Source: a virus. Taken from it: 40,256 nucleotides of DNA. Positions 1 through 37,678 of the stretch are shown one piece after another. Under the pieces are notes generated by a model. It made no database searches and was not told the origin of the DNA. It saw nothing but the letters and a program-made list of their open reading frames with translations. The stretch lies in the IMG/VR virus record IMGVR_UViG_3300031456_000013, positions 1 to 40,256 of that record. One strand, 5' to 3'. The position numbers were made by a program, and so were the translations under genes. The first letter of the stretch is position 1. Each line of letters starts with the position of its first letter.

Positions 1-119
1 GGGATGAGATAGTGAGGAAGATGTGCACCCAGCGCTATTGTTACGTGTGCAATGGGGAAGTCAATCGCATACGGAGAAGAGGGGTGCCGAGAAAGAAGAA
101 AGGAGTTGCTGTTGCTTAG
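1..119 (+). CDS. Partial duplicate (3' end) of Zn-ribbon CDS 40108..40248, produced by the terminal repeat
   Basis: Identical to 40130..40248. Reads ...DEIVRKMCTQRYCYVCNGEVNRIRRRGVPRKKKGVAVA, with TAG at 117-119. Confidence 0.55.
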   Translation, partial: DEIVRKMCTQRYCYVCNGEVNRIRRRGVPRKKKGVAVA

Positions 120-127
120 TGACGATG
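1..127. repeat. Terminal direct repeat, copy 1 (identical to 40130..40256)
   Basis: Read directly: the first 127 nt (gggatgagatagtgaggaag...gttgcttagtgacgatg) recur base for base as the last 127 nt. Unique unit is 40129 nt. Confidence 0.95.
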
Positions 128-159
128 GTTGTGCAGTCGGGTTTAGTTTCGGGGGCAAA

Positions 160-387
160 ATGTCGCAAGAGGCTATAGATGCTAAGGTGGCGGAATACAA
201 GAGCGATGGTTGGAGGCATGTAGAGTCTGCAGGGCGGCTTGCTTTCGCTTCTGAGGACGGACGGTGGTGGCATATGTGGGACTGTGAGACTGGGCGCAGT
301 ACGTTTATCGATGCTGTGTGGCTTGCGAATTTTAACAAAGGGAAGTGTGTAGATGAATGTAAGAGTGAAGAGCATGGGACTATTTAG
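160..387 (+). CDS. Hypothetical protein (75 aa from ATG 160; the ORF frame opens at 52)
   Basis: ORF 52..387. Positions 52-119 overlap the preceding Zn-ribbon gene in another frame. ATG 160 follows a G-rich stretch (tcgggggcaaaATG). W-rich, no motif recognised. Confidence 0.5.
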   Translation: MSQEAIDAKVAEYKSDGWRHVESAGRLAFASEDGRWWHMWDCETGRSTFIDAVWLANFNKGKCVDECKSEEHGTI

Positions 388-565
388 CACTGTCTTCGTT
401 ATTTTGTTGATTTTGAAGTTGTGTGGGATGACGGGTATCTCGTGGTGGTGGGTGTTTACTCCGTTGATATTCAGTGTGGCGATTAGTGCTTTAATTTTTG
501 CTATAGTGACGATGATTGGGGTGGTGGTGTGGTTGGCTGATGATGATAATAAGAGGGTTAGATAG
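353..565 (+). CDS. Small membrane protein with two predicted TM helices (holin or exclusion size class)
   Basis: Hydrophobic stretches LFSTVFVILLILKLCGM and VFTPLIFSVAISALIFAIVTMIGVVVWL are separated by GISWWW. Charged tail DDDNKRVR. Alternative start ATG 374. Confidence 0.6.
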   Translation: MNVRVKSMGLFSTVFVILLILKLCGMTGISWWWVFTPLIFSVAISALIFAIVTMIGVVVWLADDDNKRVR

Positions 566-1200
566 TGATTGTAGACTGTATTAGCGACCTCCACGGCAGT
601 TATCCGGAGCTAGAAGGGGGGGATCTGCTTATAGTAGCAGGTGATTTGACTGCTCGAGACACATTGAAGCAGCACCAGGAGTTCCAAGCGTGGTTGATTG
701 AGCAAAAGTACACAAAAAAGGTGTTAATTGCAGGGAATCACGACGGACAATACGAAAAGAGGGTGCCATTCTACACTTTTGAGACAGGGATCTGCTATTT
801 ACAGGACAGCGGCACGCAATTCGAAGGGCTAAACATTTGGGGCTCTCCTTGGACGCCGGAATTCTATAATTGGCACTTTATGCTCCCGAGAGGACGTCAA
901 CTGCGAGAGAAATGGGACTTAATTCCTGATAACACAGATATTCTAGTGACACATGGCCCTCCGTTAGGCATACTAGATGCGACTGATAATACTGTGAACA
1001 AGACGGAGAGGTTGGGTTGCGCTGATTTGAGGGATGCTGTTGAGCGAGTGAAGCCTAGGTTGCATGTTTTTGGGCACATACACGGGGGACATGGGCAATT
1101 GATGTTGAAGCATGAGGGGCCTAATACGTTGTGTGTGAATGCGGCTATTATGGACGAGGGTTACAGGCCAAGAAACAAGCCAATTAGGGTGATTTTATGA
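565..1200 (+). CDS. Calcineurin-like metallophosphoesterase (MPPED/239FB-like by eye)
   Basis: Motifs in canonical order: DxH (ISDLHG), GD (VAGDLT), GNHD (IAGNHDG), H (VTHGPP), GHxH (FGHIHGGHG). GTG start overlaps the previous stop (TAGTG). Confidence 0.85.
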   Translation: MIVDCISDLHGSYPELEGGDLLIVAGDLTARDTLKQHQEFQAWLIEQKYTKKVLIAGNHDGQYEKRVPFYTFETGICYLQDSGTQFEGLNIWGSPWTPEFYNWHFMLPRGRQLREKWDLIPDNTDILVTHGPPLGILDATDNTVNKTERLGCADLRDAVERVKPRLHVFGHIHGGHGQLMLKHEGPNTLCVNAAIMDEGYRPRNKPIRVIL

Positions 1201-1502
1201 TAGACAAGGAGTGGAGTGTTCTGACTGTTTTGCCTAACAATGGTGATCGATGTCTTTGCTATGGGTATAAGACTTTCTGCTGTGAACAGGATATGGACGA
1301 CGAACGCGAGTGGCATGAGGTGACTTTTTCTTTTCATATGGCCTGCTACAAGTTAAAGCAAGAGATCCCTCAAGACCCCGAAGAGTCTGTTTTGGAGAGT
1401 TATGACGCAATTGAATCTTGGGACATAGGCGAGGAATTTAGTGATGGTAGGGTGATTGGGGTGACAAAATGGAAACACTTACCTAGTAAGATAGAGGAGT
1501 AG
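1197..1502 (+). CDS. Hypothetical protein, DUF551-like C-terminus
   Basis: ATGA start/stop overlap with the phosphoesterase. C-terminal VIGVTKWKHLPSK resembles the DUF551 ending (VTHWMPLP type). Weak, by recollection. Confidence 0.6.
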   Translation: MIDKEWSVLTVLPNNGDRCLCYGYKTFCCEQDMDDEREWHEVTFSFHMACYKLKQEIPQDPEESVLESYDAIESWDIGEEFSDGRVIGVTKWKHLPSKIEE

Positions 1503-1503
1503 T

Positions 1504-2475
1504 ATGAGTGAAGGGTTAGTGTATGTCGGTAAAGTCGTACAATTGGATCAGATCCCAGACGCGCACTTTATTGCTTCAGCGACTGTGGTGTGCGGGAAGG
1601 GAGGGAAATGGAGAGGGATTGTTCGCAAGGATGAGTGTAGTGTAGGTCAAGAGTGTCTAGTGTATCTGCCTGATTCTGTTGTTCCTGAGTGTGATCAGAT
1701 GCGTTTCCTAGAAAAATACAAATGGCGAGTCCGGATGTGCAAGTTCCGTGGTGCGCCGAGTGAGGTATTGATAATGCCGATTCCTGAGTATAAAATATGG
1801 GAAGTTGTGGTAGGAACGGATGTCACTGCAGCTTGTGGGGTAACACGGTACTTTAAACCGATACCAGTTCATCTTCAAGGACTTGCGAAGGGACAGTTCC
1901 CTAGTTTCATCCCTAAGACTGACGAATTGAACTACCAGCGGCATGGGGATTTAGTAGAAGCGCTGCATGGCAAGCCGTATTACATCACAGAGAAAGCAGA
2001 CGGCTCATCGACTACTGCGTATAGGTACAAGGGAGAGTTTGGTATTTGTAGCAGGAACTTGGAGCTTGTGCGGGATGAAAACAATGGCTACTGGCAGGTG
2101 GCGAAGAAATATAGTGTAGAGGATAATCTTCCAGAGGGAATAGCGTTGCAGTGGGAGACTTGCGGGCCAAAGATACAAGGCAACCCGATGGGGCTTAAGC
2201 AAGGGGATGGTTTTGCTTTCAGTGCTTATAATATTCCAGAACATAGATACCTTACAATGGACGAGTTTCTTTCCTTGTGCCATACGATTAAGTTCCCTAC
2301 GGTCAGGTTAATAGAAGTTGCGCCAGAGTTTGACAAAGAAACAGTTGAAAAACTTGGTGAAGGTACGTATTGTAATGGAAAAGAGCGAGAAGGTGTGGTC
2401 GTTAGGTCCCAGGGTAATCAGATGGGTTGTTCGCCTGTCAGTTTCAAAGTAATCAACTTAAACTATGAGAAATAA
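1504..2475 (+). CDS. ATP-dependent RNA ligase, Rnl5-like architecture (N-terminal OB-like domain + nucleotidyltransferase domain)
   Basis: Motif I KxDG (ITEKADGSS), SRN (motif Ia-like), EGVVVRS (motif IV), SFKVINLNY (motif V-like, at the C-terminus). N-terminal VGKVVQLDQIPDAHFIASATVV...LVYLPDSVVPE looks like the OB domain of DraRnl/NgrRnl-type ligases. Confidence 0.8.
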   Translation: MSEGLVYVGKVVQLDQIPDAHFIASATVVCGKGGKWRGIVRKDECSVGQECLVYLPDSVVPECDQMRFLEKYKWRVRMCKFRGAPSEVLIMPIPEYKIWEVVVGTDVTAACGVTRYFKPIPVHLQGLAKGQFPSFIPKTDELNYQRHGDLVEALHGKPYYITEKADGSSTTAYRYKGEFGICSRNLELVRDENNGYWQVAKKYSVEDNLPEGIALQWETCGPKIQGNPMGLKQGDGFAFSAYNIPEHRYLTMDEFLSLCHTIKFPTVRLIEVAPEFDKETVEKLGEGTYCNGKEREGVVVRSQGNQMGCSPVSFKVINLNYEK

Positions 2476-2812
2476 GATGTATATGACGTCAGAGCTACAA
2501 CCTTGGGAAAAGGCGCTAATGTTAAAAATTGTGGAGGATTTGATGGCTTCTTGTGATTGTGATGATGAAGACCCTCGATATGATGACGAAGATGAGGTAA
2601 ATAGCCCAGATCACTACCAGTCAGACAATGGCATGGAAGCAATAGATGTGATAGAGGAATTTAATCTCAACTTTAACCTTGGCAATGTGGTAAAGTATGT
2701 GCTGCGAGCTGGGAAGAAGAGTGACAGCACGATTATAGACCTAAAGAAGGCACTCTGGTATCTGCAAAGAGAAATACATGCGCAAGAAGAAAACTGTAGA
2801 GGAAGAGATTAA
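2465..2812 (+). CDS. DUF3310-like phage protein
   Basis: SPDHYQSDNGMEAIDVIEEF...GNVVKYVLRAGKK...DLKKALWYLQREI matches the DUF3310 pattern as I recall it. Alternative start ATG 2477. Confidence 0.7.
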   Translation: MRNKMYMTSELQPWEKALMLKIVEDLMASCDCDDEDPRYDDEDEVNSPDHYQSDNGMEAIDVIEEFNLNFNLGNVVKYVLRAGKKSDSTIIDLKKALWYLQREIHAQEENCRGRD

Positions 2813-3089
2813 TGAATTTCTAAGGGTATTTGGCCAAAGGGATTTATCTAACTTGTTAACTGACATCCTGCCTTTGTTGGAGCTGTATAATGTAGACGCT
2901 AACAATGACTGGATTCGAGATGCTGTGGGTGAAGAAGATTGTCAAAACGTAAGACTGATTAGAACTGCCTACTTGGTTTCGTGGTTCTGTGAGATGCATG
3001 TGCCGAAGCTATGTTCAGTCAGGGCGCAGTTTAAGGACTTATGGAAGAGATTAGAGAAAGAAGGGGCGGCTAATGGGCACACTACCTGA
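2778..3089 (+). CDS. Hypothetical protein
   Basis: 103-aa ORF that overlaps both neighbouring genes in the operon. No motif recognised. Confidence 0.55.
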   Translation: MRKKKTVEEEINEFLRVFGQRDLSNLLTDILPLLELYNVDANNDWIRDAVGEEDCQNVRLIRTAYLVSWFCEMHVPKLCSVRAQFKDLWKRLEKEGAANGHTT

Positions 3090-3312
3090 TGGATTCTACG
3101 ATAGTTTAGATGAGCTGGCTTCGTGGCTGAGTTCTATAGATGACAAACTGGATAAACTTATAGAGGTGGCAATGGACAAGCAAATCAAGAAGATCCAAAA
3201 GGGTACTGAGAAGCTAGTGAAAGAAGAAGGCAAGCTGCTGAAAGAAGACAAGAAGCGCGATAAAGTGTGTGCTGCGGGCGAGAAAATGATGAAAGACAAG
3301 AAGAAAAAATGA
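3073..3312 (+). CDS. Hypothetical K/E-rich coiled-coil protein
   Basis: 79-aa ORF with a lysine-rich tail (KEEGKLLKEDKKRDK...KDKKKK). Overlaps the upstream ORF by 17 nt. Confidence 0.55.
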   Translation: MGTLPDGFYDSLDELASWLSSIDDKLDKLIEVAMDKQIKKIQKGTEKLVKEEGKLLKEDKKRDKVCAAGEKMMKDKKKK

Positions 3313-3396
3313 TTCCTTCTCTTTTGTGCACGATCTTGCTAGTAGCAGCCCTAGGTCCAGAAGGAGTACCATCACCACCACCAGTGAAAGGACCTA

Positions 3397-3594
3397 ATGG
3401 ACCAGCGCAACCAAGATGAACCGGAGTATTATGTCTGCTATTGCGAAGAGTGTGCCCCAAAGGTAGAAGCTCTGATAGCGAGATTAATGACTGGCAAGAA
3501 TATCGATGAGGACAAGGTAGCGCAGCTGTCTTTCATTGCTAAGTTTGTTAGAGAAGAAAAGAACTTAATACAAGTGTCAGGCAAGCCGCATTAG
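3397..3594 (+). CDS. Hypothetical protein
   Basis: 65-aa ORF with RBS-like AAAGGA 4 nt upstream. Its last 10 nt overlap the tRNA-like element. Confidence 0.5.
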   Translation: MDQRNQDEPEYYVCYCEECAPKVEALIARLMTGKNIDEDKVAQLSFIAKFVREEKNLIQVSGKPH

Positions 3595-3656
3595 CTCAGA
3601 AGTAGAGTTCCTGTTTTGTACTCAGGCGGTGGTGGGGGCGGTACCTACATGCGGCA
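3585..3656 (+). tRNA. tRNA-Thr(UGU)-like gene with non-canonical D- and T-loops
   Basis: Hand-folded 72-nt cloverleaf:
- Acceptor stem: GCCGCAT/ATGCGGC, 7 perfect bp.
- Positions 8-9: U8, A9.
- D stem: GCTC/GAGT. D loop: AGAAGTA.
- Anticodon stem: CCTG(T)/(T)CAGG. Anticodon loop: TT-TGT-AC, with U33 and A37.
- Variable loop: CGGTG.
- T stem: GTGGG/CCTAC, keeping G53-C61. T loop: GGCGGTA instead of TTCRANY.
- Discriminator: A73. No encoded CCA. Confidence 0.45.
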
Positions 3657-3715
3657 TACTGGCCTAGCTTCGGGTTCTCGGGGCACGTACGATAGGCTGG
3701 GGGAGACTAATAAAA

Positions 3716-3756
3716 GCAGCTGGGATGTCGCGACTGGCTCGGCTGCGTCTCTTTTT
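3716..3756 (+). terminator. Putative rho-independent terminator after the tRNA-like gene
   Basis: Stem GCAGCTGGG/CTCGGCTGC (9 bp, 2 G-U pairs), 13-nt loop, then GTCTCTTTTT. Confidence 0.4.
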
Positions 3757-3769
3757 AACTAGGATCGAT

Positions 3770-4066
3770 ATGACAAAGAAACACATGCTCGTAACCACTG
3801 AAAGTATGGGCGAGTTAGGTAAATGCTTCTCCAGTCCAGAAGAGATAGTGACTTTCCTTTCACAGATGGGTCAACTTGCTAAAGAGATAACATTCGCAGC
3901 AGAGATGAGGAACAAGGTGTCGGAGAAAGATGCTGTGTATGTGTCCCTGCGTCAGGTGTGTTTGTTTACGCTATTCTGCCGAGAGCACGTTGAGTTAGTT
4001 CAGCAGCTCATCAACACCGTCAAGATACAAGAGGTTACAGATGAAGAGCTAAAGGATTTCCAATAA
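3770..4066 (+). CDS. Hypothetical protein (98 aa from ATG 3770; the ORF opens at 3725)
   Basis: The ATG at 3725 lies inside the terminator hairpin. ATG 3770 follows AGGAtcgat. No motif recognised. Confidence 0.55.
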   Translation: MTKKHMLVTTESMGELGKCFSSPEEIVTFLSQMGQLAKEITFAAEMRNKVSEKDAVYVSLRQVCLFTLFCREHVELVQQLINTVKIQEVTDEELKDFQ

Positions 4067-4084
4067 TAGTGCCGACTAGCTTGT

Positions 4085-4113
4085 TTGTCAAATATTTTCT
4101 TTAAATGTATGAT
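4085..4113 (+). promoter_or_regulatory. Sigma70-like promoter in front of the late operon
   Basis: TTGTCA (4085-4090), 17-nt spacer, TATGAT (4108-4113). GGAGG RBS at 4164-4168 precedes ATG 4176. Confidence 0.45.
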
Positions 4114-4175
4114 CCGGTTGCTGGTGATTCGAGCCAGATAACAAGATAACACGGTATTCTACTGGGAGGTAGTCT

Positions 4176-4862
4176 ATGTGTAAGGAGCATAAATACGAAT
4201 GGAAACCATGCTGCGAACAAGGGCCTCAAGGGGTTCCTGGCATGCAAGGACCACAGGGTATCCAAGGGGTACAAGGCGTACAAGGCCCAACAGGTCAAAC
4301 AGGGGCACAAGGACCACAAGGGTTACAAGGCCCAGCAGGGAAAGATTGTGATTGCGACGAACAGAGATGCCAGTGTTGCGAAGCTCATGCCAACATATTC
4401 TCTCTTATGCCACAGTCTTTAACTGCATTTGGTTCAGCTACCGATACAGTTCTCTTCCAAAGCAACAACGCTGTTAGTGCAGGGGATTTTGATCTGGCGG
4501 CTATGTCTATAAATGGCGATATCAAGTTCCTTAAAGCAGGCGTATACTATATTAATTGCGCTATCGAAGCTAAAATAGGCCCTCCTATCCCTTCGCCAGT
4601 CCCTAGCTTTAGTTTTGGTTTGTGGTTGAATGGTGTATTAGTTCCTGGCAGTGTTGTTTCCGGGTTTACTCAAGCTCCTGATGACGATACTATCCAAGTG
4701 ACTTCAGAAGTTCAAATCAATGTAGCGGCAGGTGATATTCTTAGACTGCGTAATGCTTGCTCTAGTAATGTACTGCTAATACCTAATACTGCCGGGCTAA
4801 TGTTCCCAGTGACTTTAGCTAGCATCAATATCCACTGTCTCAAGGCTGCAGCAGTAATGTAG
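4176..4862 (+). CDS. Collagen-like protein with a Cys-rich collar and a C-terminal beta-rich (BclA/C1q-like) domain
   Basis: 13 uninterrupted G-X-Y triplets (GPQGVPGMQGPQGIQGVQGVQGPTGQTGAQGPQGLQGPA). They are flanked by KPCCEQ and DCDCDEQRCQCCE. About 160 aa of beta-type C-terminal sequence follow. Confidence 0.85.
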   Translation: MCKEHKYEWKPCCEQGPQGVPGMQGPQGIQGVQGVQGPTGQTGAQGPQGLQGPAGKDCDCDEQRCQCCEAHANIFSLMPQSLTAFGSATDTVLFQSNNAVSAGDFDLAAMSINGDIKFLKAGVYYINCAIEAKIGPPIPSPVPSFSFGLWLNGVLVPGSVVSGFTQAPDDDTIQVTSEVQINVAAGDILRLRNACSSNVLLIPNTAGLMFPVTLASINIHCLKAAAVM

Positions 4863-4919
4863 TCTAAAGAGGGATGGTGCACCTCGTTAAAAACGCACCT
4901 AACAAAACATTAAGGAACA

Positions 4920-6254
4920 ATGGCTAAGATTACGATACCATATGGATACCAGCCGCGTCACTATCAAGTAAAAATTTTAAATGCATTGGATAACGGATGC
5001 CGAAATGCATGTTGGATTGTCCATAGACGGGGTGGCAAGGACACTACGATGTGGAATTACATGATTAAGCGTGCCTACTTGGAGCCGGGTCAGTATTTCT
5101 ATTTCTTGCCCACGTTTGCACAGGCTAAGAAGGTGATATGGGATGGCATGACGAACAATGGCCGCCGCATGCTGGACTACATTCCGAAAGAGATTATAGT
5201 AGGCAACCCTAACAACACCGAGATGAAGGTCTGGATTAATGGTGCGCACGGGCAGAGCTTGATTCAATTGATCGGCGGGGACAGCTACGATAACGTCATG
5301 GGAACTAATCCGCGCGGCGTTGTATTTAGCGAATGGCCCCTGATGGACCCTATGGCGTATGAGTATATCAAGCCCATCTTGGCTGCGAATGGAGGGTGGG
5401 CGTCCTTTGTCTACACTCCACGGGGCAAAGGTAACCACGGGTGGGACTTGGCAGAAATCGCTAGGAGAAATCCGGATGAGTGGTTCTTCGAGACTCTGAC
5501 TGTCAGGGATACTCAAGTACTTACGGAAGAGCAAATTGATTCCGAAAGGCGTAAGGGTATGCCGGAGGACTTGATCCAACAAGAGTTCTACTGTAACTTT
5601 GATCGAGGTCAAGAGGGAAGCTACTACGGGCGCCAGATGGATGACTTGCGTAAGAAGGGCCAGATAGCGAAGGTGCCATATGACCCAGCTGTTCCTGTTA
5701 GGACATACTGGGACCTGGGAATTGGAGACAGCACAGCAATTTGGTTCGCTCAGTTCGTTGGAAAGGAAATTCATCTTATTAACTACTATGAGCAGAATGG
5801 TGAAGGATTAAGTCACTATGCGAGGATTTTGGATGAGTTTCGGAGAGAAACCGGATGCGTGTATGACCTAAATGTTGCTCCACATGACATTCAAGCCAGG
5901 GAGATGACAACAGGGATGACAAGACTCGAAACAGCTCGTCGGTTAGGGCTGAACTTCCGTGTTGCACCAAAGTTGAGCTTAGAATCTGGGATAGAAGCTG
6001 TCCGTATGACTCTCGCAAGATGCTGGTTTGATGAAAAGAGATGCGAATTGGGCCTGAAGTGTCTGTCGAACTACCGGAAGATGTACAACGAAAAGTACCG
6101 GGTTTATTCTGACAAGCCCCATCATGACAATTCAAGTCACGGGGCCGACGCGTTTCGGATGATGGCGATAACAGAGAATCAGTTCCGTCCTGACCGTGGT
6201 GTTGATGATGTGGACTATGATCGGATGAAGAATCTTTGGGGATGGAAGGTTTAA
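4920..6254 (+). CDS. terL: Terminase large subunit
   Basis: Walker A-like HRRGGKDTT. RNaseH-like nuclease motifs YWDLGIGDSTAIWF and HDNSSHGADAFRMM. 444 aa, upstream of the portal gene. Confidence 0.92.
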   Translation: MAKITIPYGYQPRHYQVKILNALDNGCRNACWIVHRRGGKDTTMWNYMIKRAYLEPGQYFYFLPTFAQAKKVIWDGMTNNGRRMLDYIPKEIIVGNPNNTEMKVWINGAHGQSLIQLIGGDSYDNVMGTNPRGVVFSEWPLMDPMAYEYIKPILAANGGWASFVYTPRGKGNHGWDLAEIARRNPDEWFFETLTVRDTQVLTEEQIDSERRKGMPEDLIQQEFYCNFDRGQEGSYYGRQMDDLRKKGQIAKVPYDPAVPVRTYWDLGIGDSTAIWFAQFVGKEIHLINYYEQNGEGLSHYARILDEFRRETGCVYDLNVAPHDIQAREMTTGMTRLETARRLGLNFRVAPKLSLESGIEAVRMTLARCWFDEKRCELGLKCLSNYRKMYNEKYRVYSDKPHHDNSSHGADAFRMMAITENQFRPDRGVDDVDYDRMKNLWGWKV

Positions 6255-6419: not shown

Positions 6420-7466
6420 CTAATCGTCATAACCCTCAAACATCACTGCACCTAGGTTTATCTCGCCTGCATGTTCACGCTTCCCAAAGGCTTTGAGTTT
6501 GTCAATCAGGTAACTAACGAATTCTGCTTGGTCCATGTTGAAACTAATCTCTATCTCTGCTTTTCCGTTGTATATGATCGCGTATTTGTCTTTGATTTCC
6601 AGCGCGTTCCAGTGGTTAATCTTTTTAAATTCCTCTGCAAAAGCCTTGTTCGCTTCGGAGTTTTCGGTAGGGACATTTGCGTTGGTCTTGAGGAGTCGCT
6701 GCATATAGGCGCCTTTGGATTTGACTTTCTTGGCACAGCAGGCTTGGTACACTTCGTCTAATCTCTTCATAGGATATTGTTTTGCCCACCAGGCGAGTGT
6801 TTCTGTGGTTGTATCAATGCCGAGCGAGGAAAGCCATTGCAGTGTTTCAGATTGTTCCGCAGAGAGCTTAAACTTAGAAGAAAACAAAGTCCAATCAATG
6901 TGTAAACAAGGCAACGTCCCTCCAACGTCCTGATGCTTAACGGTTGGCTGCTCAGGAGGTTTAGCTGGCTCTGGAGTTATGAACTTTTCCACAGGCAACG
7001 AAGACAATGTCTTATCAAAGTCTAGTTCCGTCTTTGGTTGAGTAGTCTTTGGTAATAGAACAGGATCACCCGTAGCTGGTACACCCGTAGCTGGTACATC
7101 CTGTTCTGGTATCTTTTTTTGAAAATCCGGGTTCGGCATGGGGTAAACATCGTACCTATGGTGCCACTGTCCTTCAGCGTTTTGGTATTTGGTGTACTTG
7201 ACATAACCAGCGTCTCTCAGCTCTTTAATAAGTTTTTGTATAGCGTCTCTCTTGCCGCCTTTTTGGTTACCTATATAGATCTTAGCTAATTGCCATACAT
7301 GAACTTGCCAATTAGGGTCGCGAGACAAGATGTACCAAAGCAAACCTTTCGCTGCCCAAGATAGGTTAGGGTCTGCTGGCGTTGTGTTACTTGTAATGGT
7401 GAATTGAGAGTCTAATCGTACATTGTGGATAGTAGAAGTAGATGTGTTGGAAGGGGATGTGATCAT
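6420..7466 (-). CDS. Winged-helix replication-initiator-like / DnaD-like protein, reverse-oriented inside the late operon
   Basis: Strong RBS (AAGGAG, 7 nt, ATG). N-terminal LSWAAKGLLWYILS...WQLAKIY...AIQKLIKELRDAGYVKY winged-helix-like segment. P/T-rich linker. Helical C-terminal domain (LSAEQSETLQWLSSLGI...AYMQRLLK). Function is inferred only. Confidence 0.75.
   Translation of the reverse strand: MITSPSNTSTSTIHNVRLDSQFTITSNTTPADPNLSWAAKGLLWYILSRDPNWQVHVWQLAKIYIGNQKGGKRDAIQKLIKELRDAGYVKYTKYQNAEGQWHHRYDVYPMPNPDFQKKIPEQDVPATGVPATGDPVLLPKTTQPKTELDFDKTLSSLPVEKFITPEPAKPPEQPTVKHQDVGGTLPCLHIDWTLFSSKFKLSAEQSETLQWLSSLGIDTTTETLAWWAKQYPMKRLDEVYQACCAKKVKSKGAYMQRLLKTNANVPTENSEANKAFAEEFKKINHWNALEIKDKYAIIYNGKAEIEISFNMDQAEFVSYLIDKLKAFGKREHAGEINLGAVMFEGYDD
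7067..7096. repeat. Perfect 15-nt tandem duplication inside CDS 6420..7466
   Basis: CACCCGTAGCTGGTA occurs twice in tandem. It encodes the PATGVPATG repeat in the linker. Confidence 0.9.
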
Positions 7467-35687: not shown

Positions 35688-36413
35688 TCAATCCTCCTTC
35701 AAATCAACTTTAAATGTATTACGCCAGTTATGTATCTCCGAAAGCAGGCTCATATAGTCCTCTGTCCTTGCTCTCGGTCCCATCCTATCTATCATCCGCT
35801 CCAGATTAGCCTTCCACTTTTCCTTATCAAACATCGAGTGTTTAACCAGTTTTACCATAGCCTTCCAAAACCTGCCAGAGCTTGTGTATGCCGAGTAGCC
35901 ATTCATCTTCTTAATATAGTTTATCGTATCCCAGCAGGTCTCTAACTCCTCCGCAGCAGAATCAGAAGCGAATTTGTATTCTCCCTTCCTAAATGTTGTG
36001 CCATTCTCCAAGGTCTTGCCCATCGTTAACCCTAGCGCGACCTTAAGAGATATGTTATTTGTCTTCATAAAATCTTTAAGTTTCACATATTCCGGATGCC
36101 CATTCTTTACATAGTAGTTGAGATAATCGACCGACCCCCACGACTTAGAGATGTTCATTAGTATAATATCTTCCGGTTGCAGCTCCTCTTTCAATTGATA
36201 ATAGATCGCGACCCCTAGAGACTGCGCAGCTAACAAACGATGCTGGCCGTCCATAATCTCCATAGCAGCATTAACCATAATCGGGCGCATCTCCAACAGA
36301 TTCCGTGATTGAATCGATTCCGCTATCTTCCTCACGTGTGCTTTGTCGATCTTCTCGCGGTTGTCTTCCCTGAACTTAAATATGTCATAATCCGTTGTAC
36401 TTTTAATCTTCAT
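35688..36413 (-). CDS. ParB/Srx-fold N-terminal domain protein with a DGQHR motif
   Basis: IAESIQSRNLLEMRPIMVNAAMEIMDGQHRLLAAQSLGVAIYYQL is a ParB-like nuclease/NTPase domain signature. No ParA partner is present. Confidence 0.75.
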   Translation of the reverse strand: MKIKSTTDYDIFKFREDNREKIDKAHVRKIAESIQSRNLLEMRPIMVNAAMEIMDGQHRLLAAQSLGVAIYYQLKEELQPEDIILMNISKSWGSVDYLNYYVKNGHPEYVKLKDFMKTNNISLKVALGLTMGKTLENGTTFRKGEYKFASDSAAEELETCWDTINYIKKMNGYSAYTSSGRFWKAMVKLVKHSMFDKEKWKANLERMIDRMGPRARTEDYMSLLSEIHNWRNTFKVDLKED

Positions 36414-36729
36414 GGCTCAACTCCTTAATTGCGTCTACCAATATTTCAACTTGCATCTCTAGGTTTTGTATGCGCTGATCTAACCGTTGATAAGGGCTTA
36501 GCTGTATAATCTCACTCAATCTCTTATTCTTCATCAACACTGCCCGCGCTTCTGCCTTAACCGCATTGTAGCTTTCTGCCCCTCCATTTCGTCTAACTTC
36601 TGATACTATAGTTGTTTTACTTCTTCCTATCTTCTTTGCTATCTTACCTAAGCTAAATTTCTCTCGAAGAAGCCGGTTTATCTCTCGCCGTTCATGTAAA
36701 CTTATCTTTTTCCCTCTAATATTTGTCAT
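36403..36729 (-). CDS. Small HTH DNA-binding protein (IS30-type HTH_38-like)
   Basis: LHERREINRLLREKFSLGKIAKKIGRSKTTIVSEVRRNGG. Overlaps both neighbouring genes. Confidence 0.7.
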   Translation of the reverse strand: MTNIRGKKISLHERREINRLLREKFSLGKIAKKIGRSKTTIVSEVRRNGGAESYNAVKAEARAVLMKNKRLSEIIQLSPYQRLDQRIQNLEMQVEILVDAIKELSHED

Positions 36730-37678
36730 CGTTTTCTTCCTCTAACAGCTCCTCCCAACCAAACGGCCTCACGTGCTCCGTTGTTGTCTTGCGCGGGTGA
36801 AAGTGCGTGAACATTTCCTCCATCTTGCTGCTGCTCAAATGTGTGTATCTCTGTGTGCTGGCTATCGTACTGTGCCCCAAAACCTCTTGAATCAACCGGA
36901 GATCTGCGCCAGAGTCCAGCAAGTGTGTAGCGCAAGCGTGCCGGAGGGTGTGCGTCGTCACCTGCTGCATGCCCGCTTTCTCTGCATAACCTACAACAAT
37001 CGCGCACAACAACTGCCTGCGTAACGGCTTGTCCATAATCGTGAGAAACAGCGCGCCTCGTTCATTGCCCCGGACTCCAGTAATGTAACGATCTACCCAT
37101 GCAAATGCCTCCGCTGTCACTGGCACCGTCCTTGTCTTGCTTCTCTTGCCACACGACACCATGACCTTGCGCGGGCCTATGTGGTGCAATTGTAGGCTGC
37201 AAAGCTCCGAGGCACGCAAACCCGATGAATATAGCAGCTCCAGTATTGCTCTGTCTCGTATCCCTATCTCTGTATTTGTATCCGGTTGCTCTAGTATCTT
37301 GCATATTTCCTCTACTGTTGGAATCCGTGGCGCTTTGATGTTGTTTTTTGGCGCCGTTATATTTTCCATTATGTCCGATACTAACACCTTGTTTATCCTC
37401 AAGTATTTACAGTAACTCTTCAAAGCCATGTAATACCGGTTGATACTTGCGTCGCTCTTACCGTTCAGCTTACAGTGGCCTAGGTAGTCGATTATATGCT
37501 TGCCTTTGATAGCTGCCGGCCGTTTGATATTGGTATGATCTTGCAAATACTCTATAAACCTGGAAATATCGTACTTGTATCCAGCTACAGTTTGTTGGCT
37601 CTTGCTTAATGACAGCTGCGCGATGAAACTGGCTAGCGATTCATCCATTGAGCTTAAAGTTGTCTTCGCTTGCTTCAT
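36716..37678 (-). CDS. int: Tyrosine recombinase, XerC/XerD-like
   Basis: Catalytic residues in order: R (SGLRASEL), HxxR (HTLRHACATHLL), H and Y (LGHSTIASTQRYTHL). SAM-like N-terminal domain. Confidence 0.92.
   Translation of the reverse strand: MKQAKTTLSSMDESLASFIAQLSLSKSQQTVAGYKYDISRFIEYLQDHTNIKRPAAIKGKHIIDYLGHCKLNGKSDASINRYYMALKSYCKYLRINKVLVSDIMENITAPKNNIKAPRIPTVEEICKILEQPDTNTEIGIRDRAILELLYSSGLRASELCSLQLHHIGPRKVMVSCGKRSKTRTVPVTAEAFAWVDRYITGVRGNERGALFLTIMDKPLRRQLLCAIVVGYAEKAGMQQVTTHTLRHACATHLLDSGADLRLIQEVLGHSTIASTQRYTHLSSSKMEEMFTHFHPRKTTTEHVRPFGWEELLEEENDDKY

Follow-up and report, generated by a model that had tools for sequence, protein, structure and literature searches.

A Predicted MPPED-Type Phosphodiesterase and an Rnl5-Type RNA Ligase in a Phage Lineage: A Reduced Form of an RtcB–Rnl5–tRNA Island with a Possible Role in RNA Repair

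Introduction

What do a metallophosphoesterase (MPE) and an ATP-dependent RNA ligase do close to each other in a phage genome? The question is raised by the IMG/VR virus record IMGVR_UViG_3300031456_000013, analysed here over positions 1 to 40,256 (this whole stretch, a near-complete genome of ~40 kb, is called the window below). An initial annotation, made by reading the sequence, proposed that two genes near its left end form a cassette for RNA repair or, alternatively, for the destruction of immune signals. The open reading frames (ORFs) to which it referred were all confirmed on the + strand. The two genes in question are as follows:

565..1200, + strand: predicted MPPED-type binuclear metallophosphodiesterase (GTG start, 211 aa)
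1504..2475, + strand: predicted Rnl5-type ATP-dependent RNA ligase (323 aa; N-terminal OB domain and nucleotidyltransferase (NTase) domain)

Rnl5 and MPPED are two widespread enzyme families without a known biological job. The physiological functions of Rnl5 ligases have been described as uncharted (PMC5397189), and the biological relevance of the activity of MPPED enzymes on 2′,3′-cyclic adenosine monophosphate (2′,3′-cAMP) as unknown (PMC10547211). In the relatives of the window the usual unit is larger than two genes: it consists of RtcB, the Rnl5-type ligase and the MPE, followed by 2–4 tRNA genes, and the window carries a reduced form of it. We give a probability of roughly 0.5 to the reading that the MPE and the ligase constitute an RNA-break-repair kit, a reduced form of a mobile island that protects the translation machinery. 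A mobile cassette joining both families to RtcB and tRNA genes provides a testable setting for them, namely the defence of tRNA and rRNA against ribonucleases. If the reading is correct, RNA-repair counter-defence extends beyond lytic phages of large size (T4, jumbo phages) and includes small temperate ones, and the cassette could also shield lysogens from tRNases of the colicin or contact-dependent inhibition (CDI) type. The cassette brings no new principle: phage Rnl5 ligases, RNA repair by phages as a concept (T4 Pnkp/Rnl1; jumbo phages) and RtcB beside phage tRNA genes are already known.

The Phosphoesterase

The protein encoded by 565..1200 matches the Pfam family Metallophos (PF00149) with an E-value of 1.2e-13. 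Its metal-ligand motifs, D8-x-H10, G26-D27, G57-N58-H59, H130 and G170-H171-I-H173, are invariant or nearly so in 51 homologues, which agrees with the initial annotation, where every calcineurin-type motif had been recognised by eye. The last of these motifs reads GHIH, and its first histidine corresponds to a glycine in wild-type MPPED2 (position 252). In a phmmer search of the PDB the top match is rat MPPED2 (3rl4) with an E-value of 5.6e-43, and the next match has an E-value of 0.24. The AlphaFold2 (AF2) model of the protein has a predicted local distance difference test (pLDDT) score of 93.4. Submitted to Foldseek, it retrieves MPPED2 with a query template modelling score (TMq) of 0.86 and E-values of about 1e-19 to 3e-20. 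The runners-up, PptH, Dbr1 and Rv0805 (E-values of ~1e-7 to 1e-6), as well as GpdQ and Mre11, are at least 12 orders weaker. By both methods, therefore, MPPED is the metallophosphoesterase branch nearest to the protein, and the proposed placement in the MPPED/239FB branch is borne out. The suggested analogy to the phosphoesterase of bacterial Pnkp does not go beyond the superfamily fold, since CthPnkp, like lambda phosphatase, is absent among the sequence and structure matches in the PDB. Compared with the 296-residue MPPED2 chain, the phage protein is ~85 residues shorter and lacks an internal insert, so that phmmer aligns the two in two pieces. NCBIfam gives a partial match to PdeM, the ligase-associated family, with an E-value of 3e-4 and 20 bits against a cut-off of 150. 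The family as a whole is large: 7,778 proteins reach an E-value of 1e-10 or lower among 8,000 candidates scored.

The animal enzymes MPPED1, MPPED2 and dMpped are diesterases that prefer 2′,3′-cAMP, release 3′- and 2′-AMP and have no detectable monoesterase activity; their activity on 3′,5′-cyclic nucleotides is weaker than that on 2′,3′-cAMP (PMC10547211). By analogy, we propose that the phage MPE acts on 2′,3′-cyclic phosphates. Simple healing to a 3′-OH end is not the chemistry to be expected of it, because the characterised MPPED enzymes do not show monoesterase activity.

The Ligase

Two Pfam domains are found in the protein encoded by 1504..2475, the PHA02142 OB-fold (PF21189; residues 5–93, E-value 4.4e-07) and RNA_ligase (PF09414; residues 158–317, E-value 4.1e-21). 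There is no C-terminal appendage, as the protein stops six residues past motif V. The best phmmer match in the PDB is the Rnl5 ligase NgrRnl (5cot) with an E-value of 1e-31, compared with 0.63 for the best DNA ligase. The AF2 model (pLDDT 93.1) matches NgrRnl over the whole length in Foldseek, with template modelling (TM) scores of 0.82/0.79 and an E-value of 3e-28, whereas Rnl3, T4 Rnl2 and T4 Rnl1 align to the NTase domain only, with E-values of ~1e-7. These results uphold the earlier assignment to the Rnl5 domain order rather than to T4 Rnl1 or Rnl2; profile and structure searches place the protein with NgrRnl and not with DNA ligases or capping enzymes.

The catalytic residues are conserved as well. 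Among 46 homologues, K164 (in KADGSS), E296 (in EGVVVR) and K315 (in SFKVIN) are invariant. According to the phmmer alignment, with K315 of motif V read straight from the sequence, the residues of NgrRnl correspond to those of the window's ligase as follows: K170 to K164, D172 to D166, E227 to E218, F248 to F239, E312 to E296 and K326 to K315, and further T145 to T139, D53 to D57 and K121 to R115. The roles of the active-site residues are known from NgrRnl (PMC7261155). All the mapped positions are invariant in the 46 homologues except F239, T139 and R115, of which F239 and T139 are nearly invariant. A difference is seen at Arg149, which contacts the ATP γ-phosphate in NgrRnl: its position is occupied by Asn143, nearly invariant in the phage clade. 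The N-domain contacts Asp53 and Lys121 have counterparts in D57 and R115; for Arg4 no arginine is available within the first 10 residues of the phage protein. The R149A mutant of NgrRnl retains 15% of the activity; the changes R4A and K121A are tolerated (PMC7261155).

The sole NCBIfam match is TIGR02306 (RNA_lig_DRB0094, the DraRnl model), which covers residues 9–321 of the protein and positions 6–338 of the 341 of the model. The score of 95.1 bits lies below the curated equivalog cut-off of 151.15. The ligase is therefore a divergent member or subfamily of the Rnl5 architecture and not a DraRnl equivalog. Bacterial viruses have already been listed among the carriers of Rnl5 (PMC5397189, PMC4408790). 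The characterised enzymes seal 3′-OH/5′-phosphate nicks in duplexes if the 3′-OH strand is RNA (PMC4408790, PMC5397189). The Rnl5 reaction depends on ATP and Mn2+.

The ligase model also yields weak Foldseek matches to chains of bacterial phenylalanyl-tRNA synthetase (PheRS), with E-values of 1e-5 to 4e-4 and low TM scores. We suspect that they arise from the N-terminal OB domain, which would resemble the tRNA-binding OB region of the PheRS β subunit.

Linkage in Related Phages

Two surveys of relatives bear on the question of whether the genes belong together. The first, in IMG/VR, was based on the ligase and comprised 39 loci with a ligase 52–81% identical to that of the window, 40 loci with the window itself; their ORFs were called and clustered without prior labels. 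The commonest neighbour of the ligase turned out to be the MPE (26 of 40 loci), followed by the terminase cluster of the window's type (17 of 40). The MPE lies upstream, downstream or on the opposite strand with respect to the ligase, in at least six orders and orientations and beside three terminase types. A further neighbour, a protein of 392 aa, is RtcB (PF01139, E-value 2e-65), which occurs in 12 of the 39 loci, usually immediately 5′ of the ligase. Eleven of these 12 loci contain the MPE too, and the twelfth ends where its closest relative has the MPE.

The second survey was anchored on the large terminase subunit (TerL), which marks the downstream edge of the accessory region:

4920..6254, + strand: TerL gene, the anchor for the lineage survey

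It included 31 loci with a TerL 73–95% identical to that of the window and at least 5 kb of upstream sequence. By gene content they are distributed as follows:

No MPE, ligase or RtcB: 17
MPE + ligase + RtcB: 11
Ligase only: 2
MPE + ligase without RtcB: 1 (closest relative of the window)
MPE alone: 0

Thus, 12 of the 14 loci with the ligase have the MPE, and none of the 17 without the ligase do (Fisher exact p 6.4e-7, a value that overstates independence because the loci are related, which counts against the repair reading). RtcB is present in 11 of the 14 ligase-bearing loci of this lineage. The carriers occupy at least six scattered positions in the TerL tree, interleaved with non-carriers, which implies joint gain or loss of the genes on several occasions. 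The region upstream of the terminase gene is a cargo hot spot, whose content of genes for DUF3310, Cpn10, ParA, collagen-like proteins, resolvases and methylases changes from locus to locus. In the window itself RtcB was not found (best tblastn E-value 0.19). Of the two-gene cassette first proposed, the conserved linkage of the MPE and the ligase stands, and the two-gene unit gives way to RtcB + Rnl5 + MPE + tRNAs.

The dependence is asymmetric and specific to the lineage: the RNA ligases of the clade are nearly always accompanied by the MPE, and the MPE needs no ligases. Such asymmetry is in keeping with enzymes that catalyse separate steps or respond to the same selective pressure, rather than with a protein complex. 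Protein-level searches of the GenBank phage records place the ligase in 304 and the MPE in 93 of them. Of those listed, both families are found only in the 735-kb LR756501 (= LR756503), where the genes are 340 kb apart; Aeromonas phages, which occur in both lists, were left out of this overlap check. The pair is thus essentially absent from cultured phages, and none that could serve as its model was found.

Two of the relatives contain additional enzymes of the same kinds. In locus L017, a second PF09414 RNA ligase without an OB domain (4810–5550) is situated ~0.4 kb upstream of the Rnl5-type ligase. In L119/L120 (8145–8714; the same phage as L008, 4145–4711) there is a second small metallophosphoesterase of 189 aa that starts with RWFISDTHFGH. 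Its gene runs at its end into the start of RtcB. This enzyme is not the same as the MPPED-type one, which the cassette also has further downstream, and is uncommon among the loci sampled.

tRNA Genes

The relatives have 2–4 tRNA genes at the corresponding place, between the cassette and the terminase gene. Arrays are found at L008 8661–9483, L010 9072–9956, L011 9138–9569, L021 8102–8749 and L091 7369–7836, and in others too. The mean number of tRNA genes is 2.9 in loci with all three enzymes vs. 0.76 in cassette-less loci (Mann–Whitney p 7e-4). The commonest tRNA in the arrays is Asn(GUU), then Thr(UGU), and Asp, His and Tyr, the other tRNAs with GUN anticodons, recur. The GUN-anticodon tRNAs are exactly the set targeted by nucleases of the colicin E5 type. 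The make-up of the arrays may reflect an anticodon nuclease of the host or codon usage.

The window has one such gene:

3585–3656, + strand: divergent tRNA-Thr(UGU)-like gene (Rfam RF00005, 40.2 bits vs. a gathering score of 29)

Its 7-bp acceptor stem is perfectly paired, its anticodon is UGU (Thr), and the anticodon arm matches that of L091's bona fide tRNA-Thr at every position. There is no GG in the D-loop, and in the T-loop GGCGGUA stands in place of UUCGAAU. ARAGORN, which reported zero tRNAs in the window, missed it. The gene may be either degenerate and decaying or non-canonical. It overlaps the 3′ end of ORF 3397–3594 by 10 nt.

Proposed Function

RtcB joins 3′-phosphate or 2′,3′-cyclic-phosphate ends to 5′-OH ends. 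The company of the ligase is RNA-specific (RtcB, the second PF09414 ligase of L017 and the tRNA arrays), which suggests that the translation apparatus is repaired or maintained. That the pair is a trimmed RtcB–Rnl5–MPE–tRNA island strengthens RNA repair over signal degradation. The carriers would be a clade of ~40-kb temperate metagenome phages of the P22-portal type, with the island positioned just upstream of the terminase gene. The full island comprises RtcB, the Rnl5-type ligase, the MPPED-type phosphodiesterase and then the 2–4 tRNA genes; in the window, only the phosphodiesterase and the Rnl5 ligase are left, together with a single degenerate tRNA-Thr-like gene. Ribonucleases of the host or of a competitor may cleave tRNA or rRNA in the course of infection or lysogeny. 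The phosphodiesterase would then open 2′,3′-cyclic phosphates on RNA ends or in the debris of 2′,3′-cyclic nucleoside monophosphates (2′,3′-cNMPs), and the ligases would reseal breaks whose halves are still base-paired. The enzymes of the island would not form a complex; each would carry out its own step or serve a route parallel to the others. We infer these substrates, this order of steps and a counter-defence purpose, as well as coverage of both classes of RNA break by the full island.

3′-OH/5′-phosphate breaks are the kind left by metal-dependent nucleases. With no 5′ kinase and, if the MPE is MPPED-like, no 3′ monoesterase, the pair alone would seal only these breaks or 2′-phosphate/3′-OH ones; the 2′-phosphate/3′-OH product of a diesterase might also be ligatable. 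The remaining steps in the window's version would need to be supplied by a host factor or an unrecognised phage factor.

Several observations speak against such a repair kit. For a classic break with 2′,3′-cyclic phosphate and 5′-OH ends the pathway has a gap, just as the initial annotation had anticipated for healing and sealing: no kinase was found in the genome, no kinase domain being recognisable in any ORF scanned with Pfam, PHROGs and NCBIfam (the neighbours and the early genes), and a 3′-OH end is not the product to be expected from enzymes without monoesterase activity (PMC10547211). The sole known phenotype of an Rnl5 ligase is recovery from DNA damage (PMC5397189). In PaP1, Mic1 and DC31 the Rnl5-type ligase resides with primase and helicase in the replication module, and in DC31 it directly follows an ATP-dependent DNA ligase. 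Furthermore, in a survey anchored on the MPE, which gave 16 true relatives, three have the ligase, one has RtcB alone and 12 are without any ligase. Elsewhere the MPE adjoins a YqaJ exonuclease or forms an HTH_38–MPE pair next to the terminase gene. Its neighbours in Tunturi_5 are a deoxynucleoside monophosphate (dNMP) kinase on one side and a nucleoside deoxyribosyltransferase on the other, and in Flavobacterium phages it is surrounded by genes of replication or nucleotide metabolism. In the MPE tree, copies linked to a ligase and solo copies are intermingled. Finally, the distances between ligases show no covariation with those between MPEs (Mantel r 0.16; 709 of 5000 permutations attain this value), so the data offer no argument for a physical complex.

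Alternative Explanations

[quoted passage not shown] The ligase would then perform separate RNA repair, and the two genes would be co-selected by a common host pressure without sharing a pathway. This would accord with the nature of the MPPED enzymes and Rv0805, which are cyclic-nucleotide phosphodiesterases (PMC10547211), Rv0805 being among the Foldseek matches of the MPE, and with the absence of co-divergence; the MPE is also often solo, with a nucleotide-metabolism context in Tunturi_5. However, in the lineage of the window the MPE never occurs without the ligase (0/17), and it is present in every RtcB locus that has sufficient flanking sequence. The preference of MPPED enzymes for 2′,3′-cAMP over 3′,5′-cyclic nucleotides (PMC10547211) and the lack of homology to the signal-degrading enzymes Acb1 (2H) and Apyc1 (metallo-β-lactamase, MBL) also argue against it.

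It is unlikely that the pair acts on DNA, with the ligase sealing nicks that have a 3′ ribonucleotide (RNA primers, repair patches) and the MPE serving as an end-cleaner or nuclease. Two ribonucleotides at the 3′ terminus are enough for DraRnl, which tolerates DNA in the rest of the nick; when it is deleted, the genome is reassembled with a delay after irradiation (PMC5397189). One metallophosphoesterase, from a mycobacteriophage, breaks down the DNA of the host (PMC12287305). The replication modules of PaP1, Mic1 and DC31, with the DNA ligase preceding the Rnl5-type ligase in the last, and the faint PdeM match would suit the same explanation. That match is nevertheless partial and weak (E-value 3e-4, 20 bits vs. 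150), and the MPE resembles MPPED, not Mre11/SbcD. In addition, the ligase of the clade travels with RNA-specific RtcB and tRNA genes, and the cassette is distant from the replication genes at 28–33 kb.

A reading in which the MPPED-type enzyme and the Rnl5 ligase make up a kinase-independent route of RNA repair is also unlikely. The phosphodiesterase would turn the 2′,3′-cyclic phosphate into 2′-phosphate/3′-OH or clear another 3′ block, and the ligase with its N-terminal OB domain would reseal a nicked tRNA whose 5′ end is already phosphorylated; otherwise, the DUF3310 (T7 gp1.7-like) protein would phosphorylate the 5′ end as an unrecognised polynucleotide kinase. If true, it would give both the Rnl5 and the MPPED families their first physiological substrate.

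Least probable of all is that the MPE and the ligase are unrelated cargo sharing the insertion hot spot upstream of the terminase gene: the high mosaicism of the region, the missing co-divergence and the separate occurrence of the two genes in other phages would allow it, but their presence and absence are tightly coupled in one lineage at no fewer than six separate tree positions, other cargo of the hot spot is uncoupled (DUF3310 in 4/14 vs. 8/17), and RtcB and tRNAs as further partners are thematically coherent.

Comparison with Known Systems

The closest likeness of the ligase is to NgrRnl, with which it shares the order of the OB and NTase domains, the lack of a C-terminal module and the full-length fold (TM 0.82). 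The two differ in that they are ~29% identical and that the position of Arg149 is taken by Asn143. For the MPE the reference enzymes are MPPED1, MPPED2 and dMpped together with Rv0805 (class III); MPPED2 is by a wide margin its closest solved structure, and all metal ligands are present. No member of the MPPED family linked to RNA ligases was found in the literature search.

In T4, Pnkp and Rnl1 (and Rnl2) likewise represent a phage end-processing enzyme beside an ATP-dependent RNA ligase, plausibly answering host ribonucleases. Unlike T4, the window has no 5′ kinase, a binuclear metallophosphodiesterase takes the place of the HAD acylphosphatase, and the ligase is an Rnl5 with another accessory domain. 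Bacterial Pnkp/Hen1 combines a calcineurin-type phosphoesterase and an ATP-dependent ligase module for RNA repair (PMC12776372). The window pairs the same two kinds of enzyme; however, in Pnkp the kinase, phosphatase and ligase are fused and Hen1 is needed, and the window has neither kinase nor Hen1. With the phosphatase domain of Pnkp the MPE has only the superfamily fold in common, and PDB searches reveal no specific similarity.

The island of the relatives, with RtcB immediately 5′ of the Rnl5 ligase and a tRNA array 3′, recalls RtcB-based repair (the rtcBA operon, RtcB2–PrfH). RtcB beside tRNA genes has been noted anecdotally in phage Privateer (PMC7881722), and jumbo phages combine RtcB with Rnl1 and Rnl2 ATP-dependent RNA ligases for repair (PMC7824862). 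The window differs from RtcB systems in the lack of RtcB, and no RtcA, RtcR, PrfH or archease was seen. The island's MPE is a difference too, since the described Rtc systems have no MPPED-type partner. The MPE is, like Acb1 and Apyc1, a phage phosphodiesterase and could in principle destroy cyclic nucleotide signals. The analogy would be functional only, as Acb1 has a 2H fold and Apyc1 an MBL fold, whereas the MPE is calcineurin-type and not homologous to either. In general, the cassette falls outside the T4 Pnkp/Rnl1, Pnkp/Hen1 and Acb1/Apyc1 systems, and the MPE is not homologous to their enzymes beyond the superfamily fold. A phage cassette of MPE with Rnl5 or RtcB, with an MPPED-type enzyme as the regular partner of the two ligases, was not found in the searchable literature, nor was a cassette of this kind in small temperate phages, an earlier description in comparative surveys of RNA repair still being possible.

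Neighbouring Genes and Genome Context

Two small genes flank the ligase:

1197..1502, + strand: orf101 (101 aa), at the slot that RtcB has in relative L014, where the order is MPE–RtcB–ligase
2477..2812, + strand: DUF3310 protein (111 aa from the called start)

For orf101, tblastn gave zero matches in the 39 related loci, and Pfam, PHROGs and NCBIfam show no significant family. The idea that it is a remnant of RtcB was rejected, as it has no similarity to RtcB and no homologues in the relatives. The DUF3310 protein shares 39% identity across 74 residues with the C-terminal domain of T7 gp1.7, an unusual nucleotide kinase of which DUF3310 is the sole Pfam domain. The lactococcal SaV, a determinant of sensitivity to AbiV, belongs to the same family (PMC8306868). 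The protein was the only candidate for the missing kinase and was considered as a component of the cassette. It shares the T7 gp1.7 domain, but in the TerL-anchored set, 4 of the 14 loci with the ligase have DUF3310, compared with 8 of the 17 without the ligase. As it is no commoner beside the cassette than without it, we treat it as a neighbour, not a component. In L004 (6962–7213) and seven other loci a GroES/Cpn10 homologue is encoded, often with the ligase on one side and the phosphoesterase on the other. Since relatives that lack the cassette have it too, it is probably a head-assembly chaperonin outside the cassette.

The window has a P22-type portal gene. Its recognisable genes for early functions, replication and recombination (ERF, a PD-(D/E)XK nuclease, a DnaB-like helicase and RusA) are all at 28–33 kb. 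Beyond them are two adjoining genes:

35688–36413, − strand: ParB-like gene
36716–37678, − strand: tyrosine recombinase

The cassette is part of a mosaic block of small genes that begins after the recombinase/ParB block and continues on the same strand into TerL. Given this place and that of the replication genes, the cassette, directly upstream of the terminase gene, does not belong to the early region in which it had been put at first. The ORFs of the cassette region, all on the + strand, are 353..565, 565..1200, 1197..1502, 1504..2475, 2477/2465..2812 and 2778..3089; since those from 353..565 to 2477..2812 overlap or abut, they are read as one transcription unit. A promoter and terminator scan of positions 1–5000 gave no signal above shuffled background. 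Two independent contigs of ~40 kb from metagenomes (Logan SRR8863343 and ENA ERZ27251605) code for identical proteins, and their genes are called with the same boundaries. A megablast search of positions 1–6000 against the 50,697 GenBank phage records returned zero relatives at the nucleotide level. In a scan of genome contigs for the host, one contig of a metagenome-assembled genome (MAG) labelled Bacteroidetes (n = 1) has the ligase only.

ParA-type ATPases are encoded just upstream of the ligase in two relatives, L004 (5061–5732) and L005 (5084–5746). Given the ParB and ParA genes, phages of the window's type may be maintained as plasmid prophages, the recombinase resolving dimers, instead of integrating. 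At 6420–7466 (− strand) the window encodes a protein of 348 aa with an N-terminal replication-initiator/DNA-binding domain (PHROG 4707, E-value 3e-15). For a gene of this kind, the opposite strand between the terminase and portal genes is an odd location, and the same slot holds the phosphoesterase in L091/L092. Immediately 5′ of the terminase gene, 4176–4862 (+ strand) encodes a protein with collagen repeats (PF01391) that weakly resembles the C-terminal domain of BclA. The GC skew is strongly positive on the coding strand over positions 1–4000 (0.33 and 0.25 in the first two 2-kb windows) and ranges from about −0.2 to 0.2 elsewhere in the genome.

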